DNA from: a virus
Taxonomy: Duplodnaviria > Caudoviricetes
Strand: one strand, 5' to 3'
IMG/VR virus record: IMGVR_UViG_3300025141_000018
DNA length: 64,000 bases
Below are positions 23,134 to 55,913 of this stretch, in pieces. Below the pieces are notes generated by a model. That model was not told the DNA's origin, searched no databases, and saw only the letters and a program-made list of their open reading frames with translations. The translations under genes were made by a program, and so were the position numbers. The first letter of the stretch is position 1. Each line of letters begins with the position of its first letter.

Positions 23134-23340
23134 ATGAAATTGACACATATTATTGAACAACCCGAAGGGCCTCCGCCCATTAATCTTCAAGCAATCGAAG
23201 GCATGATTGATCAAGTTGTCCCCGATCCTGCATATGCTGATGAAATCCGTCAAGCAATCGGTATGTTAGGAAGCGGACGACAATTAACTCGTGAACACAA
23301 CCAAGTAATATTGACATATCTTACAATGATATCTGGTTAA
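23134..23340 (+). CDS. Small hypothetical protein, probably on a leaderless mRNA
   Basis: MKLTHIIE leader; ATG 5 nt after TATAAATA; no SD. Confidence 0.55.
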   Translation: MKLTHIIEQPEGPPPINLQAIEGMIDQVVPDPAYADEIRQAIGMLGSGRQLTREHNQVILTYLTMISG

Positions 23341-24701
23341 TGTATCTTTTTAATTAACGATTTTAATCTATCTGTTTGGTCAACTGTTACTGCTTCTTTT
23401 GGTTCAGTATCACGCATTGTTGACGTCTTTTTTAGTTTTTCGTACAGATTTTCTTGCGGTGTTTCTTCCATATCATCTGCTAAATCTTGTATTCTTAGTG
23501 TATTAATATCAAAATCTAATTCTACTTTTTGTCCTACACCACTACTGGATCTAGTTTTCATAAATTGTATTTGCACTCTACCACGTTCTCGCATTATTCT
23601 ACTAGTAAAAATTGCAATAACATTATCTGCTGTTTGTATTTTACTAATACCACCTGCAATATGACTGTGATCAAACTCTATTTCATCTACTGCACCTCTG
23701 TTTAATTGTGATGCTGTGGCAAACAAATAATTTCCTTCTACTGCAAAGTTCCTAAGTTCTTCACTAACAAACTTATCTTTAATAAACAAATCACTTGGTG
23801 GTACTTTCCGTTGTGCTGGCATCATTAAATCTAGATAATCTACTAGTATGCATTGTGGTTCTATACCTGTTTGTGTTATGTACTCTTTAATGTATACTTT
23901 AATATCATTAACTGTACAACCATTTGGTAATTGTATAATTTGTAAATTACCTTTTTTCTTTCCGTGCATTTTAACTTTTAATTCAACATCGTCAATATTT
24001 TTAAATATTTCTCTTGTTGAATATCCTGTTATCATGCTGTCTAGTCGCATTGCAGTTAATCCTTCACTAAGTTCTAAACTCAAGTATATTACATTAAATC
24101 CTGCTTCGACCCAGTTAAGTGCTAAGTTTTGTAAGAATAAACTTTTACCTGCACCAGATCCTCCTGCAAATATACTAAGTTCTCCTCTATTAAATCCACC
24201 ATACAATTTGTCATCTATTGTTTTCCATCCTGTACTTGTACTACCATTTTTATCTCTTAACTCTGTTAACCGAGCAAGTGGATCTTGCCAATAATCTGTT
24301 CCTAGGTTTTTTGTTAAACCAATACTAACTGCTTCTTTAATTATACCTTCTACTGTACCATATTCTTGTGTTTCTAATAAATCTGCAGATTCTATAATTG
24401 CTTTTTCTAATGCCTTATGTTTACAAAATTGTTCAAACTCTCCTAAGAACCAATCTGTTTCATGTTTTGTAACTGGTACTTTTTCAAACTTTCCTTTTGT
24501 CTTTGCATTTAATATTTCAAACCCAGGCATAGCAGAATGTTCATCTGAATATTCTTGTATAAATTCTACACTTTCTCTAAGTGTGGCATCAAAGTATTCA
24601 GGTTGAACAATATTACTACATCTTGCATAAAGTTCTGGTTCTGTTACCAAAAATTCTATAAACATTTTTTGTAATTCGTATGTATAATCTACTTCAGCCA
24701 T
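23337..24701 (-). CDS. gp41: Replicative DnaB-like helicase (T4 gp41)
   Basis: Walker A AGGSGAGKS; ILVDYLDLM; TASQLNRG; MKTRSSSGVG. Confidence 0.95.
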   Translation of the reverse strand: MAEVDYTYELQKMFIEFLVTEPELYARCSNIVQPEYFDATLRESVEFIQEYSDEHSAMPGFEILNAKTKGKFEKVPVTKHETDWFLGEFEQFCKHKALEKAIIESADLLETQEYGTVEGIIKEAVSIGLTKNLGTDYWQDPLARLTELRDKNGSTSTGWKTIDDKLYGGFNRGELSIFAGGSGAGKSLFLQNLALNWVEAGFNVIYLSLELSEGLTAMRLDSMITGYSTREIFKNIDDVELKVKMHGKKKGNLQIIQLPNGCTVNDIKVYIKEYITQTGIEPQCILVDYLDLMMPAQRKVPPSDLFIKDKFVSEELRNFAVEGNYLFATASQLNRGAVDEIEFDHSHIAGGISKIQTADNVIAIFTSRIMRERGRVQIQFMKTRSSSGVGQKVELDFDINTLRIQDLADDMEETPQENLYEKLKKTSTMRDTEPKEAVTVDQTDRLKSLIKKIH

Positions 24702-28476: not shown

Positions 28477-28571
28477 AATAAATATATATTACACTATTTA
28501 GGTTGTTTTCGCAACCTTTATTATGGGGCACCATCCCCGTAGTGGATAGAACCCACTTTAGGAGAAAACAA

Positions 28572-28970
28572 ATGGGAAGACCAATTAGTAAAAGACATAT
28601 CGGTACACCCGATGCTGGCAACGAATTAAAATGTCGGTATCATACCGGAGCCGCAGAAGTAAACGGCTGGATTGTTGCACAAAAAGGTACCAAGCGATAT
28701 AAATGCTACGATGGTTCCACTTATGCAACATGCTCATTAGTTGATAAAGCACAAGGTACATTAGCCGCTGGCGAAATGACTGTTACTGTTAAAGACGATG
28801 GCGGAACAGTTCGCCAGGTCACAAAAATTACAGGACATAGAGTTATGCTTGATTCAGGCACATCTCAGCCTTGGACATTTACAACAGATGCCGCTGATGA
28901 CAAAGTGGAAATTGAAGAAGCAGGTACGGACGATTCCTTTACCGGCGCAGACGATTTCGAAGCAGACTGA
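28572..28970 (+). CDS. Hypothetical protein, probably virion-associated
   Basis: Start moved to ATG 28572 (AGGAG SD); late promoter near 28478. Confidence 0.7.
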   Translation: MGRPISKRHIGTPDAGNELKCRYHTGAAEVNGWIVAQKGTKRYKCYDGSTYATCSLVDKAQGTLAAGEMTVTVKDDGGTVRQVTKITGHRVMLDSGTSQPWTFTTDAADDKVEIEEAGTDDSFTGADDFEAD

Positions 28971-50718: not shown

Positions 50719-51317
50719 AACAATTAATTTACGTATTCAATGCTATTGGACATTGTGGCCATTTCTTTTCTTGGGCATTGCATGATGCATTAGGTTACAA
50801 TTATTTTAGCATAACTAAAAAAGATAAAGAATTCCAACTAAACGGTAATTTAGATGTTGGACGATTTTCTCGTGTAACATCTTGGTATCTAGCAAATTGT
50901 ATGTCCCAAGATGAATGGAATTATGTAATTACTACTACCAATATGATGAAGGATAACGGAAAGCATATGTTTCATTCACAGAAAATTAACACACTAATTG
51001 TTCAAAACGAATTTAGAAGTAACTTTTTTGTTAATAGCAACGATCCGTCTATTGTATGTTTACTACCAAATGGCAATACATATTTTGACCGTGTAAACAT
51101 TACACGATTTGATAGACAGGAAGTATTTGAACCACCAGTTGCAATACCTGTTTTAAACAAACATTGTATTGAAATAAACTTAGAAGATATGATTTTTAAT
51201 AAAAATTATGATTTTGTAGAATATCTAACGGAACCTGTAGACATAGATAGGTTACATACAAACATGTTATACTGGCATGACTTTATTCTTGAGAAAGGGG
51301 ATTCTACTTCCCCTTAG
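50715..51317 (+). CDS. Hypothetical protein, paralogue B
   Basis: LIYVFNAIGHCGHFFSWAL; shares QNEFR and NLEDMIFNKNYDFV with paralogue A. Confidence 0.65.
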   Translation: MKQLIYVFNAIGHCGHFFSWALHDALGYNYFSITKKDKEFQLNGNLDVGRFSRVTSWYLANCMSQDEWNYVITTTNMMKDNGKHMFHSQKINTLIVQNEFRSNFFVNSNDPSIVCLLPNGNTYFDRVNITRFDRQEVFEPPVAIPVLNKHCIEINLEDMIFNKNYDFVEYLTEPVDIDRLHTNMLYWHDFILEKGDSTSP

Positions 51318-51771
51318 GTACTCTTTTACTAAAATCAAATTTGTAAAACTCTAAAGATCCTTTGTTGGTGTTACTACCATCGCTTGCATCTTCAGGCTCA
51401 ATAAATTCACCTTCAATTATTTCACCTTCGCTCATTGATTCACTTGCTTTTTCTTGTTTCTTGTGTTCGGGTTCTGTGTATGGAACCTTATATGCAATAG
51501 GATCAATGTCTCCGTCGTGTACAACCCAATAATAAACCCAATCTGGTTCTTTAACAGCCGATGAAATTAATATAAACTTCTTTGACTTTATATTTTTGGT
51601 AGGATATCCTAATAATCCTTGTACTGTAATATATGTTGTTACAGTAAGCAAAAGAGAAGCAGGAATTAAAATAAACATATAAAGTTTATTTTGTCCTTTT
51701 TGTATTAGATCCCATAATATTATTGCTAATAAAAGTACCCATGCTACAATTAAAAAACTAAAAAATACCAT
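51304..51771 (-). CDS. Two-TM membrane protein, third gene of the MotA/MotB-like cassette
   Basis: Two N-terminal TM helices, then GYPT and EPDWVYYW; coupled to the upstream gene. Confidence 0.7.
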   Translation of the reverse strand: MVFFSFLIVAWVLLLAIILWDLIQKGQNKLYMFILIPASLLLTVTTYITVQGLLGYPTKNIKSKKFILISSAVKEPDWVYYWVVHDGDIDPIAYKVPYTEPEHKKQEKASESMSEGEIIEGEFIEPEDASDGSNTNKGSLEFYKFDFSKRVPKGK

Positions 51772-52574
51772 TAAAATCCTCCTTCGGGTTCCTCATCATA
51801 ATCATACGTAAGTCTACCTTCTTGGTCAACTGTTGCCGATGTTGGGCGTGATTCGCCTCGATGTTCCGTGCTTTCTAAACCTGGTGGACTACCTATATTA
51901 GTGCCCTGTGAACTGGCGCCATGAGTTAGGGGCTCCGCCGCGCCGTGCGAGTGCTTTCCCGCAAAACGTTTTTGTAATTTGTTTTTAGAAATTACCTCCC
52001 CAGCATCATTTACTTTAAATCTAACGACAGTTTCCTCCTGTCCATTATTTTTAAGAGTAAGAACATCGTTATGTACTTCGCCATACGGATTTATTTTTAG
52101 TACCTGAACAGTAACATCAATAGGACCATGTCTTCTATTCTTCTTTGAATACAAATGTACATTAACAATATACTCACCAGGTGCGGTTCCTCGAATTGTC
52201 ATTATTTCGCGATTTAGAAATATTGTCTTTTTTTGACCATTTGCTAGTTGAATAGTATCATTGCTTGAACCCAGGTCGTCTTTATCTAAATGTAACCACC
52301 CACCTTCTTTATTAGGAAATCCGACTATTGTTTTTAAAGGATCTTGCATCCATAAATCTACATCGTATACGGATTTATGATCCCACTCCATTATAATCAT
52401 AAATTCTGCTTTCGCTTCTATGTTTGCTTCTTTTGTTATAGGATTAATTAAAATAAATGCAATAATAAAAAGGAAGGCAAAACCTATTAGAACATTAAAC
52501 AATAGGTCAGTAAATGCTAAACTACTTCTATATTTTGAATCACTGTCCATCTTGTTTGTTCTCATTTTCGACAT
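51771..52574 (-). CDS. MotB/ExbD-like single-TM protein with periplasmic Ig-like domain
   Basis: AFTDLLFNVLIGF TM helix with an Asp; DVDLWMQDP...LDKDDLG...GEYIVNVHLYS domain. Confidence 0.7.
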   Translation of the reverse strand: MSKMRTNKMDSDSKYRSSLAFTDLLFNVLIGFAFLFIIAFILINPITKEANIEAKAEFMIIMEWDHKSVYDVDLWMQDPLKTIVGFPNKEGGWLHLDKDDLGSSNDTIQLANGQKKTIFLNREIMTIRGTAPGEYIVNVHLYSKKNRRHGPIDVTVQVLKINPYGEVHNDVLTLKNNGQEETVVRFKVNDAGEVISKNKLQKRFAGKHSHGAAEPLTHGASSQGTNIGSPPGLESTEHRGESRPTSATVDQEGRLTYDYDEEPEGGF

Positions 52575-52998
52575 TAACTAACTGGATTTTTAATGTTAAA
52601 GAACAAATGAGACCTACTAAGGTAGTGTATAATGCAGTACTCATACCTAGGGCCATTTTTGTAAGTGAGTTCTGTATTGTGCTAGTATTGGATAAGTCAA
52701 TGTCTGCAAATGCACCACTGAGCATTAATAAGAATCCTGTTACAGTTCCTATCATACCCAAGGCAAGGCATGCTTCGGCTGTAAACCAGCCCACACCAAC
52801 ATCTTGCTTTGTATCTTCGGTTAACTTAGTTTTCCACCCAATCCAAAGCGACGTCATTGTAAACACTGACAGTATTAAAAAACTTATTTTGGTCTGATCT
52901 GCATGGTATAGGTCAATGTGCAAATTGAAATATACTGCGATTCCACCTGCTAGGATCGAGAGGCAAAATATAAGCCACCATCTCAATAGTGCTTTCAT
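52540..52998 (-). CDS. MotA/TolQ/ExbB proton-channel family protein
   Basis: ALGMIGTVTGF and GMSTALYTTLVGL motifs. Confidence 0.85.
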   Translation of the reverse strand: MKALLRWWLIFCLSILAGGIAVYFNLHIDLYHADQTKISFLILSVFTMTSLWIGWKTKLTEDTKQDVGVGWFTAEACLALGMIGTVTGFLLMLSGAFADIDLSNTSTIQNSLTKMALGMSTALYTTLVGLICSLTLKIQLVNVENENKQDGQ

Positions 52999-53005
52999 TT
53001 AACCT

Positions 53006-53443
53006 TTAATTTAATAATTTATCCTTAGTATTTATTTCAAAATCAAATGGATCGTCCTTTTGGGGTCTGGTGCTAAGTAGATCGTGCTGTAACTGTTCTA
53101 GTTGTTTCTTTGCAACCATTTCTGTTACTTTTAAAGCATCAAATGGGCTTTCGTTAACTATTCGTTCGCCGGCTAGTAGTCCTTCTTCAGCAGTATCATA
53201 CCAAGTGGCTTCCCAAACACCTTTTACATTAGTGTGTCTAGGTTTGTCGTATACTATGCCGTTATCTTTATTAACCCAATGTAAATGGAGAGTACCTATA
53301 TATTCTTCTACAAAACCAAAGCCTTGTAGAATGTCTCGAATACCTAAACTAGGAAAAAATGGAAAGGCAGGATCGTTATATAATTTATAACGGTATTGTG
53401 TTTCTAAACTGAATCGAAGTTCTTTTTTGTCCTTGTCGTTCAT
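53006..53443 (-). CDS. Hypothetical protein
   Basis: 145 aa; no family recognised. Confidence 0.6.
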   Translation of the reverse strand: MNDKDKKELRFSLETQYRYKLYNDPAFPFFPSLGIRDILQGFGFVEEYIGTLHLHWVNKDNGIVYDKPRHTNVKGVWEATWYDTAEEGLLAGERIVNESPFDALKVTEMVAKKQLEQLQHDLLSTRPQKDDPFDFEINTKDKLLN

Positions 53444-53460
53444 GCATATATTTAAACAAG

Positions 53461-53650
53461 AAAAAAGCGGATGGGTTAAAGATGGCTAATCAACGAACAA
53501 TGGTCAATAAACAAAAAACAACAATAACGCCTGCATCCTAGCATCAACAAGCATCTGTTTTTCTAGGATCAAAGCCTTGGCGTTCCAGTAGTTCGTTTGG
53601 GGAATGTCGACTAAAAGCCGAAATGAAGCCTCTTTTAATAGCATCCGCCT
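53461..53650 (-). ncRNA. Candidate structured RNA in the 3' region of the 53660-54223 gene
   Basis: Closing stem GCGGATG/CATCCGC extended by TTAAAAGA-GGCT/AGCC-A-TCTTTAA; inner stems AACGCC/GGCGTT and ATCCTAG/CTAGGAT; T6 tail. Confidence 0.55.
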
Positions 53651-53659
53651 AACGCCGAA

Positions 53660-54223
53660 TTAGAGTAAACCCTCGTTAATAAGAATCTGTTCTTCATCGG
53701 TAGTTAATTCTATTGCTTTCTTAACATTAAGTTCAAGCAGTTTATCGTTGGCTTGTTGTCTCGTCTTTTTAAGACCTTTAACGGTCTCTTTAAAATTTGA
53801 GACTTGTTCTTTGTCAAACAATCCAACAGTTATAGTGTCGCGACTAGAAAAAGAATCGTCTGAACGTCTACTTAATTTTTCAAGTCGTCCTTCAATTTCA
53901 TCGTACTTTATACGAGCCCTATTCCTGCTAAGTTCCGTATACTGCCGTATCTCGTGATCAAGACGAGCTTCCTCGGCGAGTAAACCAGACACACCGCACT
54001 TTGCATTCATTTGAGCAGTCTTTGCTCTCATTGAATAAAGTGTAGTTAAAAGATTGGTTCGCAGTTGAATGTTCTCTACTGCTTCTTGTAATTTGTTGGT
54101 AACCGCTTCCTTCGGTTTGATGAATTCATCTACTTCAACAGTAGAATCGATTTGTATCTCAGCAATCCTGGATTGGAGTTCTTTCTGGATTGCCGCGGAT
54201 TTACGCAGGTTAATTTTAGCCAT
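53660..54223 (-). CDS. Helical coiled-coil hypothetical protein
   Basis: 187 aa; strong AGGAG SD; own promoter. Confidence 0.75.
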   Translation of the reverse strand: MAKINLRKSAAIQKELQSRIAEIQIDSTVEVDEFIKPKEAVTNKLQEAVENIQLRTNLLTTLYSMRAKTAQMNAKCGVSGLLAEEARLDHEIRQYTELSRNRARIKYDEIEGRLEKLSRRSDDSFSSRDTITVGLFDKEQVSNFKETVKGLKKTRQQANDKLLELNVKKAIELTTDEEQILINEGLL

Positions 54224-54273
54224 GTTATTTCTCCTATGTTAGCCAAAGTGTTTAAAAGCCTTTATTAGTATAT

Positions 54274-54302
54274 ATTATATGCGATATTTATCGTAAGGTC
54301 AA
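54274..54302 (-). promoter_or_regulatory. Sigma70-type promoter with an embedded late promoter
   Basis: TTGACC-17 nt-TATAAT; the spacer contains GATAAATA inside the inverted repeat CGATA-tt-TATCG. Confidence 0.8.
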
Positions 54303-54303
54303 C

Positions 54304-55317
54304 CTATTTTTTACAATTCTCTGCACATAACCTGTTTATTTTTGGTTTATCAAATGTACTTACAAGTTCATACATCTTTTTATGCTTTAGTACATCTTCT
54401 ACAGAATATTTGGTTAAATCGTTCCAATTACCATCTTCATTAAACCAATCATAAAACTCTTCATAATTATCTGAACTACAATAATATGTATTACAACATG
54501 GAAAAAATCGTTTATCTGATGATACATAAAACCAGCCATCTCTAGTACATTCAGGTTCTAGTTCTACTCTATCTATCCATAATTGTTTAGGCTGTTTATA
54601 TCCGGGTTTCCCATTCTGCAATCCTGAAACTTGTTTAAATTCTTTTACTAACTTAAAATTTGTTTTCCATAGTTTTTGCAACTTTTTTTCTGCTACTTCT
54701 TTTGTCATTAAATTAGAGTTTATTCTAAAATTTTTAAACCCTAAATCATCTGCCAATTTTTTTGCCTGTGTTATTTGATGTTCATTATGTTTAAACACAA
54801 TATATTTCCAACATGCCGCACCTCCGGCATTAATATATGCTTTTACATTATGCATTAATCGTTTCCAAGATACACCTGCACGATATAGATGATTTGTATC
54901 TTCTAAGCCATCTATTGAAAATATAATACCACTTCTACGAACTGTGAGTATTTCTGCTAATTCTTCAAACGTTTCAGTTTTACCTAATGAACCATTTGTA
55001 TGCATAGATAATTCTAAATCGCCACCATACTTCTTTGCCTCTCGATATATTTCAGCAATACCTGGGTGTGCCATTGGATCGCCATTATTACCAATTGAAT
55101 ATAATGATTCAACATCCTTAAACCAAGGTTGGTAAAAGAACTTTTCTTGTAAAAATTTTAAGTCTAAATTTAAATCCCTAACTCCAAACGGATTATAATA
55201 CATTACTCCGTTGTCGTCGTCTATATCGACTCTAGTACAACTAACACATTTTGCATTACAATTAGAACTTAGTTCTAGTTCTATACGTTTAGGAAAATAT
55301 ATCATTTTTATTACCAA
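54304..55317 (-). CDS. Radical SAM protein with SPASM/Twitch-like C-terminus
   Basis: CNAKCVSC; GNNGDP; TNGS; FSIDG; C...PCC...C. Confidence 0.9.
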   Translation of the reverse strand: MVIKMIYFPKRIELELSSNCNAKCVSCTRVDIDDDNGVMYYNPFGVRDLNLDLKFLQEKFFYQPWFKDVESLYSIGNNGDPMAHPGIAEIYREAKKYGGDLELSMHTNGSLGKTETFEELAEILTVRRSGIIFSIDGLEDTNHLYRAGVSWKRLMHNVKAYINAGGAACWKYIVFKHNEHQITQAKKLADDLGFKNFRINSNLMTKEVAEKKLQKLWKTNFKLVKEFKQVSGLQNGKPGYKQPKQLWIDRVELEPECTRDGWFYVSSDKRFFPCCNTYYCSSDNYEEFYDWFNEDGNWNDLTKYSVEDVLKHKKMYELVSTFDKPKINRLCAENCKK

Positions 55318-55913
55318 ATTAGTCTAGACACCCAGATAATTCTATTAAACTCATGTTTTTGTTTAGGCACCGAGTGGTGACTGATTTCGGAATTTACATA
55401 CGCAAAATAAGTTCCTGGTAAACATTTTATTTGCTTAACAGGTACTATTATAACACTACCAATTTCAATATTTTTTTGTTCTTTATGAAATATAGCACCT
55501 GTCTCTGGATATTGGTTAGTATCGGGTAGATAAAAGTGCTGAGTTATACTATGTATTACCCCATCTAATTTTAATTCTTTTTTATAATCATTATATGCAC
55601 TTTGATTATAATCTGTATGTATATCTAGTTGTCCACCTTTCTTTTGTAATTGAAAAACAGAAACAAACCTATGTTTTTTAGGAATATCAATTTTAAATGT
55701 GTTAAATAGATATTCTGCTTGTTCCTTTGTTTCAAACTCGGCAAGAATACGGCGATGCCATTTAGTATGTTCAGCATGATATATTTCAGGACATAAATCG
55801 GGCTGGGGATCTGGAATCCATTTAGATGAACTATATATTTTTTTACTGAGCTCTATTGGATTTTCAATAGCATTCTCTTGTATAATATGTAAAAAGGGTT
55901 CTGCAAATATCAT
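55311..55913 (-). CDS. 2OG-Fe(II) oxygenase
   Basis: LDIHTD (HxD), SHHSV distal His and terminal R. Confidence 0.8.
   Translation of the reverse strand: MIFAEPFLHIIQENAIENPIELSKKIYSSSKWIPDPQPDLCPEIYHAEHTKWHRRILAEFETKEQAEYLFNTFKIDIPKKHRFVSVFQLQKKGGQLDIHTDYNQSAYNDYKKELKLDGVIHSITQHFYLPDTNQYPETGAIFHKEQKNIEIGSVIIVPVKQIKCLPGTYFAYVNSEISHHSVPKQKHEFNRIIWVSRLIW

Follow-up and report, generated by a model that had tools for sequence, protein, structure and literature searches.

A conserved phage module pairing a helical-protein gene with a structured UG-heptad RNA, a candidate viral protein-RNA particle

The window analysed here is a 64,000-nt stretch of a Caudoviricetes genome (IMG/VR record IMGVR_UViG_3300025141_000018). 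Coordinates refer to this whole stretch, and every feature of the module described below lies on its minus strand. An open reading frame (ORF) at 53660-54223 encodes a helical protein of 187 aa and is followed by a structured non-coding RNA (ncRNA) that carries unpaired UG dinucleotides at an exact spacing of 7 nt. From comparison of the sequences, we propose that the gene and the RNA constitute a conserved two-gene module, which most likely makes a protein-RNA particle, a reading to which we assign a probability of about 0.55. The principal elements of the module are the following.

53660-54223, minus strand: gene for the 187-aa helical protein, member of a large viral family without Pfam assignment; invariant residues include R7, R66 and N166
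53466-53649, minus strand: structured ncRNA core of 184 nt, with P1, P2, P3, a long-range helix, P4a, P4b and P5, supported by covariation
53542-53562, minus strand: P5 loop with conserved xUG-N4-UUG-N-UG, as AUGCUUGUUGAUG, matching the loop of larger relatives position for position
53491-53525, minus strand: heptad array of five units, UUG recurring every 7 nt exactly (0/2000 shuffles)
53467-53696, minus strand: extent of the discrete RNA, about 225 nt, consisting of some 45 nt of the gene end plus the core and stopping where the T-run starts

The RNA core begins 10 nt past the stop codon of the gene. It is closed by two helices, P1, in which AGGCGGAUG (53650-53642) pairs with CAUCCGCUU (53473-53465), and P2, in which AAAGAGGCU (53635-53627) pairs with AGCC-A-UCUUU (53487-53478). 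Together they provide 18 bp that enclose the whole RNA, and 97-99% of their cells are paired among close relatives. The enclosed elements are the small hairpin P3, P4a (AACGCC/GGCGUU), P4b (GC/GC), P5 (AUCCUAG/CUAGGAU) and a long-range helix between 53599-53591 and 53498-53491. Folding of the single sequence is only mildly unusual, with z = -1.87 and 6/200 shuffles folding as well. It is the comparison of relatives, rather than the folding energy, that decides that the structure exceeds chance, and this comparative evidence is strong.

The close clade consists of six close protein clusters only, all marine, with contigs and pattern scans as the source of sequences. In this clade the gap occurs in 12 distinct versions of 171-188 nt, without exception directly behind the gene, and compensatory changes are found in P1, P4 and P5 among 11 close RNAs. 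A pair of P1 that is A-U in the window becomes G-U in locus L018 and G-C in L003. P4a reads CGCC/GGCG in the window, CACC/GGUG in L022 and CCCU/AGGG in others, its innermost pair being U-A in L008 and A-U in L020, while in P4b a G-C pair changes to A-U in two subclades (L022; L003). P5 is CCUAG/CUAGG in the window, CCCAA/UUGGG in L022 and CCGGG/CCCGG in others, and the long-range helix goes from CGAAC/GUUCG (window) to CUGAC/GUUAG (L022). Many one-sided changes give G-U pairs, which would be A-C on the other strand, indicating that the fold belongs to the strand of the gene.

Pair statistics were calculated on an alignment refitted to the proposed structure (model R1, close clade). In this alignment, which is biased toward the structure and contains few and related sequences, so that its numbers are supportive but not final, paired cells amount to 81.3% vs 75.7 +/- 0.8 in shuffles (0/500 reach the observed value), 11 pairs are altered on both sides (1/500 shuffles), and the covariation score is 0.235 vs 0.152 in shuffles (0/500). 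With the partners slid by 1-3 columns, only 34-50% of cells are paired. A sequence-only reading of this locus had described ends pairing over roughly 20 bp and the nested stems AACGCC/GGCGTT and ATCCTAG/CTAGGAT. The closure is found as claimed, in P1+P2, and the stems correspond to P4a and P5. It had also named, as results that would speak against its proposal, a 3' region that is unconserved, shows no covariation or amounts to a mere terminator; the region is both conserved and covarying.

The same reading had pointed to a U/G-rich tract, which is present, and had missed that the tract is a strict 7-nt repeat. From 53525 down to 53491 the units are AUUGUUG, UUUUUUG, UUUAUUG, ACCAUUG and UUCGUUG. 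None of 2000 dinucleotide shuffles gives a run of 5 at period 7, and the other periods from 4 to 10 give runs of 1-2. The last unit alternatively pairs with 53591-53599, and the P5 loop adds two further phased UGs. The sister subclade retains a G at each 7-nt step, and one UG has become AG there. Exact 7-nt UG runs are likewise present in L024, L105, CcrColossus, CcrPW and Gurke, and the unit consensus derived from 259 family heptads is W-U-U-G-Y-N-N.

It is conceivable in principle that the gap acts at the DNA level, as iterons, an origin or a promoter cluster, or that it encodes a small protein, such as the antisense MANQ(K/R)T... peptide. Repeats could be protein-binding sites in DNA, and most close relatives do have an antisense ORF of 19-49 aa that begins in the conserved AGCCAU box. 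However, the length of this ORF varies over that whole range and its start codon is lost in L022, the strand-specific G-U pairs and compensatory changes favour RNA, a spacing of 7 nt corresponds to neither the helical repeat of DNA nor the length of a codon, no enrichment of the motif is seen in other parts of the window, and RNA contigs cover exactly this stretch. We consider such an explanation exceedingly improbable. No conserved ORF was found in the gap on either strand among close relatives; a sense ORF of 46 aa is unconserved and broken by 1-nt and 10-nt indels. The repeat was also considered as a promoter or operator and rejected, TGCTTGTTGA and TTGTTGAT not being enriched elsewhere in the window, and an interpretation as T4 MotA boxes was dropped, as there is no -10 element at the right distance.

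The RNA is not confined to the close clade. At 80 distant loci the gene lies inside phage tRNA arrays, with tRNAs within 2 kb in 71/80 and up to 14 of them on one side, and in 77/80 a 250-290-nt RNA is found no more than ~1 kb from the gene and on its strand. This RNA is directly behind the gene in about 18 loci and directly in front of it in most, with one element between the two in the rest; in many relatives it ends ~30-260 nt upstream of the gene start. A second model, R2, was built from 39 non-redundant distant RNAs, with the window clade excluded. Their consensus has 28 pairs, 24 of which show double (compensatory) changes, and the only invariant columns of the alignment are the heptad UGs, which are unpaired. 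The hallmarks of the family are thus a long helix that closes the RNA, a stem-loop core of P4/P5, and unpaired UG repeated at 7-nt spacing, mostly as WUUGY.

The window RNA and the distant RNAs are connected from both sides. Model R1 gives full-length matches behind the gene in L024, L105, L028 and L039 (E ~1e-4 to 4e-3), and R2 finds CcrColossus and CcrPW with E ~1e-7 and L105 with E 5e-3. On the window, R2 matches 53453-53589 (minus strand) with 18.3 bits and a marginal E of 0.021, and its matches to L008 (E 0.037) and L022 (E 0.039) are each marginal as well, all of them in the right place and on the right strand. The architectures also correspond. Helices equivalent to the closing P1+P2 of the window covary in the distant family, the P5 loops of the window and of the distant RNAs (AUGCUUGUUGAUG / CUGUCAUUUGCUGAU) agree position by position, both have a GCAGGC 3' strand in common, and in both the heptad run stands just before the 3' closing strand. 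The window RNA is without the 5' domain and the variable hairpin of its larger relatives. It is therefore very likely, as judged from these sequence matches, a reduced member of the UG-heptad phage RNA family, and we regard it as nearly certain that the RNA is a real structured ncRNA of this family.

Neither the RNA nor the protein belongs to a described family. Rfam 15 at the gathering threshold gives no match in window 53380-53720, and with the limit relaxed to E 10 there is just a chance snoRNA match inside the coding region; the large relative L048 has 0 matches at E up to 10. On 20 distant loci Rfam detects only tRNA, GOLLD and freshwater-2, all elsewhere in the loci. No description of this RNA or protein was found in the literature, the 8,495 unnamed IMG/VR candidates of PMC10690425 not having been compared.

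Other RNAs were seen at these loci. GOLLD RNA (RF02032, 192 and 157 bits) is present at L084:3649-4117 and L031:1-345, within 1-2 kb of the gene. In 36/80 distant loci the stop codon of this same protein gene is followed, with no base between, by a second, G+C-rich RNA of ~225 nt, which is located elsewhere in 4 more (examples L045:2572-2797 and L088:1384-1605; range L030-L107). Its motif is GGACAGGGUAAC...AGUCUAGGGC...GGCUAGACAC, no Rfam family matches it at E up to 10, and the order in these loci is heptad RNA, gene, second RNA. The freshwater-2 motif (RF02980) occurs in the window at 28500-28574 (plus strand) and, on an unrelated contig, at L074:3432-3504, ~600 nt downstream of the heptad RNA. 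L131 (IMGVR_UViG_3300026566_000199), a 6.9-kb contig, holds two RNA+gene modules 2.5 kb apart on the same strand.

The association of RNA and gene was also examined in the reverse direction, by scanning an 18-mer of the RNA 5' strand over IMG/VR. The scan returned 59 sites, 53 of them with the gene on the same strand within 465 nt; 3 more are at contig ends, and 3 are false positives in coding sequence. Thus every genuine RNA site with room on its contig (53/53) has the gene adjacent. A pattern scan for the RNA alone, over viral and metagenome contigs, found close relatives only, with the gene always present. In the cultured phages CcrColossus and CcrPW (Caulobacter), Gurke (Brevundimonas) and Vibrio phage 2.275.O, an unannotated gap of 273-292 nt follows right after the gene and holds phased UGs and a closing helix. 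The window module itself stands outside a tRNA array, the tRNAs being ~5 kb away. The comparisons indicate that RNA and gene are co-inherited, in either order, across very divergent large phages, usually in tRNA arrays. The pair stays together when its order flips and when it lies outside tRNA arrays, which favours a functional pair over a shared neighbourhood. A functional partnership of the RNA with the protein is in our judgement quite probable, and the proposal of the sequence-only reading, a protein plus a cognate RNA, is strongly backed by this two-way genetic linkage across ~30% protein identity.

It may be asked whether the RNA acts without the neighbouring protein, either as a sponge or decoy for a host factor or as a stand-alone RNA of tRNA arrays, the gene being merely co-located and co-expressed. 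The 71/80 loci in tRNA arrays would suit this explanation, since such arrays hold other orphan RNAs (GOLLD, and the second RNA in 36 loci). The heptads are unpaired and repeated, like those of sponge RNAs, and the protein is without an RNA-binding signature. A sponge could target a cold-shock-domain protein, RNase E, an anticodon-directed nuclease or another binder of U/G-rich heptamers in single-stranded form. But the adjacency of RNA and gene is far tighter than that of other array elements, and it survives both changes of order and moves out of tRNA arrays (window, CcrColossus, CcrPW, Gurke), while tRNAs and other RNAs come and go around the pair. An RNA acting independently of the protein is for these reasons unlikely, in our view.

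Metatranscriptomes provide evidence on the RNA as a molecule. Parts of the locus occur in six RNA libraries, and contigs were placed for four; the uncovered parts (upstream of 54261 and downstream of 53467) were left out of the evidence. In three metatranscriptome runs from two studies, a separate contig of 222-227 nt lies over the RNA, at 53472-53696 (k-mer depth 17.6), 53467-53693 (22.9) and 53470-53691 (9.5). The coding region is represented by other contigs at depth 3.5-5.7, or is absent, so that the depth of the RNA is 3-6x higher. The 5' limits of the RNA contigs, 53691-53696, fall ~45 nt inside the gene. The recurrent breaks at the same two places, one of them at the P1 foot before the T-run, are a hint that an RNA of ~225 nt persists longer than the mRNA, and the depths hint at a discrete RNA species more abundant than the mRNA. 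Two further features bear on the ends of this RNA.

53707-53736, minus strand: candidate internal promoter for the RNA, TTGAAC-N18-TAGAAT, 9/12 consensus positions, in the last codons of the gene
53461-53466, minus strand: T6 run directly after P1, terminator-like in this subclade only

The transcription start predicted from the internal TTGAAC-N18-TAGAAT match is near 53700. The match is kept in close relatives, but the conserved codons for LLELNV...IEL lie at the same place. The RNA may be transcribed from a promoter of its own within the end of the coding region, or it may arise by processing. With respect to the 3' end, the sequence-only reading had the RNA ending in T6. The run is indeed present at 53466-53461, but it is only partly conserved, relatives having UUUCU. 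A simple terminator scan found no canonical intrinsic terminator in 52900-54500, and P1 encloses ~165 nt; the earlier statement that there is more structure here than a terminator needs agrees with this empty scan and with the conservation and covariation of the region.

The RNA might instead be a cis-acting part of the gene transcript, that is, an operator that the protein binds to regulate its own gene, or an element at the 3' end that stabilises or terminates the transcript and insulates the next gene. There is no terminator between gene and RNA, so that co-transcription is possible, and both the T6 after P1 in the window and the RNAs that end ~30-260 nt upstream of the gene start in many relatives fit this explanation. 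It is difficult to reconcile with the position of the RNA, upstream of the gene in some phages but downstream in others, a variation that a leader or terminator would not tolerate. In addition, the T-run is unconserved, the RNA assembles as its own contig at 3-6x the coding depth, and 180-290 nt of covarying structure with invariant repeats exceeds the needs of a terminator. A purely cis-acting element seems distinctly unlikely to us.

The protein belongs to a large group. A profile search retrieved 828 clusters at 50% identity, 448 of them below E 1e-10 and nearly all of 184-194 aa and unannotated, and IMG/VR contains 301 relatives. Blastn with the window DNA and tblastn with the window protein gave no match among 50,697 cultured-phage records, the cultured phages being reached only via distant family members. 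Pfam, PHROGs and PDB sequence searches gave nothing usable, with only chance coiled-coil hits besides the following. A match to phrog_25230 is uninformative, that family itself being without known function; a 'small terminase' match is weak and occurs in 1/53 members; potyvirus coat and Ku80 matches are marginal (E 0.03-0.3).

An AlphaFold 2 (AF2) model from 53 sequences has a predicted local distance difference test (pLDDT) score of 93 and is almost all helix; it supersedes a model from 6 sequences (pLDDT 66), which gave meaningless matches. The only full-length structural match in the PDB is 3kdq, an uncharacterised protein of Corynebacterium diphtheriae. The likeness is significant by Foldseek (probability 1.0, E 6e-3) and VIA (Z 10.2 over 142 residues), but the root-mean-square deviation is 6-9 A and the identity 14-19%. 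BFVD supplies relatives with template-modelling (TM) scores of 0.8-0.94, among them CcrColossus gp272; its matches also comprise proteins of uncultured phages, which are uncharacterised, and further phage proteins. Weaker look-alikes there (TM 0.63-0.64, probability 1.0) come from the giant viruses Catovirus CTV1 and Yasminevirus. An ESM Atlas feature search puts viral clusters bearing DUF6847 (Pfam) nearby, which is a lead only, with no Pfam hit by sequence.

In the mechanism that we propose for the particle, the helical protein would bind the adjoining RNA and, as an oligomer, would read one UUG per subunit at the 7-nt pitch, the heptads being presented by the closed scaffold. This oligomeric reading is proposed because HutP is the best parallel for triplets that recur at a 7-nt pitch with spacers of free sequence. 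On the hut terminator RNA of Bacillus subtilis, the HutP hexamer recognises UAGNNNNUAGNNNNUAG, with sequence-independent spacers and in two groups (PMC2425495). The likeness lies in UAG-N4-UAG-N4-UAG, with its 7-nt period and unpaired triplets, for which there is UUG-N4 here, in groups of two and four to six. The differences are considerable. HutP is an alpha/beta hexamer that serves antitermination of one operon, whereas the present protein consists of helices throughout and shares neither sequence nor fold with it; the triplet is another one, and the repeats are set in a closed fold of 180-290 nt that accumulates as its own RNA. The TRAP-(G/U)AG system is of the same type as HutP. No homology to HutP or TRAP was detected (no Pfam hit; all-helical AF2 model). 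Direct periodic binding of the heptads by the protein stands at somewhat less than an even chance.

Several observations weigh against the proposed protein-RNA particle. No RNA-binding domain or signature is recognisable in the protein by Pfam searches, and the sole full-length structural match, 3kdq, is itself an uncharacterised protein. Linkage alone could reflect co-regulation or a role in cis, and an RNA lying only ~30 nt before the start codon, as in many relatives, suits an autoregulatory leader too. The contig data cannot rigorously fix the ends or levels of the RNA. The link between the window and the family is made of marginal E values (0.02-0.04), intermediates and a shared architecture, with no single strong score.

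A protein gene that adjoins a tandem-repeat RNA also recalls type III toxin-antitoxin or abortive-infection pairs, in which a repeat RNA neutralises a toxic protein, and according to PMC12283969, such systems occur in viruses. The sequence-only reading had listed an RNA antitoxin among its options. That option fits poorly, with a unit of 7 nt rather than ~36 nt (~34-45 nt in such systems) and a protein that is not nuclease-like. The repeats are embedded in a larger covarying fold and do not form a plain tandem array, the gene order varies, with the RNA 3' of the gene in the window, the protein is of an all-helical coiled-coil type with no ToxN/AbiEii-type nuclease chain among the best fold matches listed, and the module is found in lytic jumbo phages, inside tRNA arrays. 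A type III-like pair is accordingly very improbable.

Other RNAs with repeated protein-binding motifs differ from the heptad RNA in several respects. CsrB and RsmZ contain many copies of a short motif, GGA in hairpin loops, at irregular spacing, and csrA is not adjacent; ToxI consists of ~36-nt repeats that are cut by the toxin. The UG-heptad unit, in contrast, is 7 nt long and of exact pitch, with the partner gene adjacent. Phage tRNA regions are known to encode stable RNAs, which have been without known function since the 1970s, and the job of GOLLD and ROOL is likewise unknown; the species 1 and 2 RNAs of T4 are stable phage RNAs from its tRNA region. GOLLD and ROOL (RF02032, RF03087; PMC12286853) resemble the heptad RNA as phage and prophage ncRNAs encoded by tRNA genes, GOLLD even in the same arrays (L084, L031), but they are 400-800 nt long and form RNA-only multimers, without a heptad array and without a dedicated neighbouring protein gene.

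Phage T5 offers a possible parallel. To our knowledge, no partner protein has been described for the stable RNAs of T5 and T4, which resemble the heptad RNA as small stable phage RNAs encoded among tRNA genes, their function unknown for decades. The T5 record (AY543070; L167) lists nine 'stable RNAs with unknown functions' among the tRNAs (RNAI, RNAIII, RNAX and others), and these show no sequence or R2 match in the 30 kb of T5 searched (positions 20000-50000), R2 having no match anywhere in it. On the minus strand, at 23143-23505, a 363-nt gap annotated with a promoter only follows T5.085 (212 aa) and contains 7-nt units. These units are A-rich, not UUG, and hhalign of T5.085 against the protein family profile gives a probability of 0.1, with no homology detected. 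The T5 gap module and the UG-heptad module thus appear, on sequence, to be analogous or very remotely related.

Three features of the surroundings complete the locus.

54274-54302, minus strand: predicted sigma-70-type promoter, TTGACC-N17-TATAAT, 11/12 consensus positions, hexamers kept in close relatives
54224-54273, minus strand: conserved 5' leader with Shine-Dalgarno AGGAG (54231-54235), from the upstream-region alignment
53006-53443, minus strand: next gene, 145 aa, syntenic in the close clade only and outside the conserved pair

The promoter has its -35 hexamer TTGACC at 54302-54297, a 17-nt spacer and its -10 hexamer TATAAT at 54279-54274. In the upstream-region alignment, TTGAC(C/T)-17-TATAAT is kept in every relative of 68-100% protein identity, as is an A-rich tract upstream of it, in keeping with the consensus sigma70 promoter that the sequence-only reading had assigned to the gene. 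The spacer contains the box GATAAATA (54292-54285, minus strand), which is NATAAATA-like and differs from the T4 late box TATAAATA. In relatives the box is AATAAATA or GGTAAATA, and its TAAATA core is present in all close relatives. Such conservation is unusual for a promoter spacer, and the box is a candidate late-promoter-like motif. Expression throughout infection, as had been suggested, is not supported beyond promoter-like motifs, and the nested box is not the canonical T4 late box.

The 145-aa gene has 41-48% identity between subclades and is missing behind the RNA in L024 and the distant loci. A late-box-like UUAAAUA (window 53444-53460, minus strand; CUUAAAUAC in relatives) precedes its ATG by ~8-12 nt. 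The gene is without a Shine-Dalgarno sequence; should the box act as a promoter, the transcript of the gene might have little or no leader. The flanks of the pair in the close clade (window 51304-52998 and 54304-55913) hold, on the upstream side, a radical-SAM gene and one resembling a 2OG-Fe(II)-oxygenase, and, on the downstream side, the 145-aa gene and a MotA/ExbB-like membrane cassette. This synteny is retained in L003, L007 and L022 and lost in distant relatives.

The setting in tRNA arrays suggests a role of the UG-heptad module in phage RNA or translation biology. A broader and decidedly speculative proposal, which we hold to be doubtful, is that the module represents a widespread, undescribed class of viral ribonucleoprotein particle (RNP), in which a helical protein would assemble at 7-nt pitch on a UG-heptad array in a closed scaffold, in hundreds of large phages. 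The T5-type pairs would be the same invention, and the particles would work for the phage's own tRNAs and translation machinery: they could, for instance, organise or protect the untranslated transcripts of tRNA arrays, or counter host attack on tRNA.

Recognition of the RNA would fill an annotation hole of 200-300 nt in four cultured-phage records, and probably in many related genomes. Experiments are feasible, since the module is present in cultured phages, namely CcrColossus and CcrPW with their tractable Caulobacter host, a Brevundimonas phage and a Vibrio jumbo phage. A compact RNA with a legible feature, an invariant UG per 7 nt, together with a dedicated partner gene makes for a directly testable hypothesis. 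Should the heptads indeed be read by the protein, the module would represent a new mode of RNA recognition for a helical protein and a new viral RNP.

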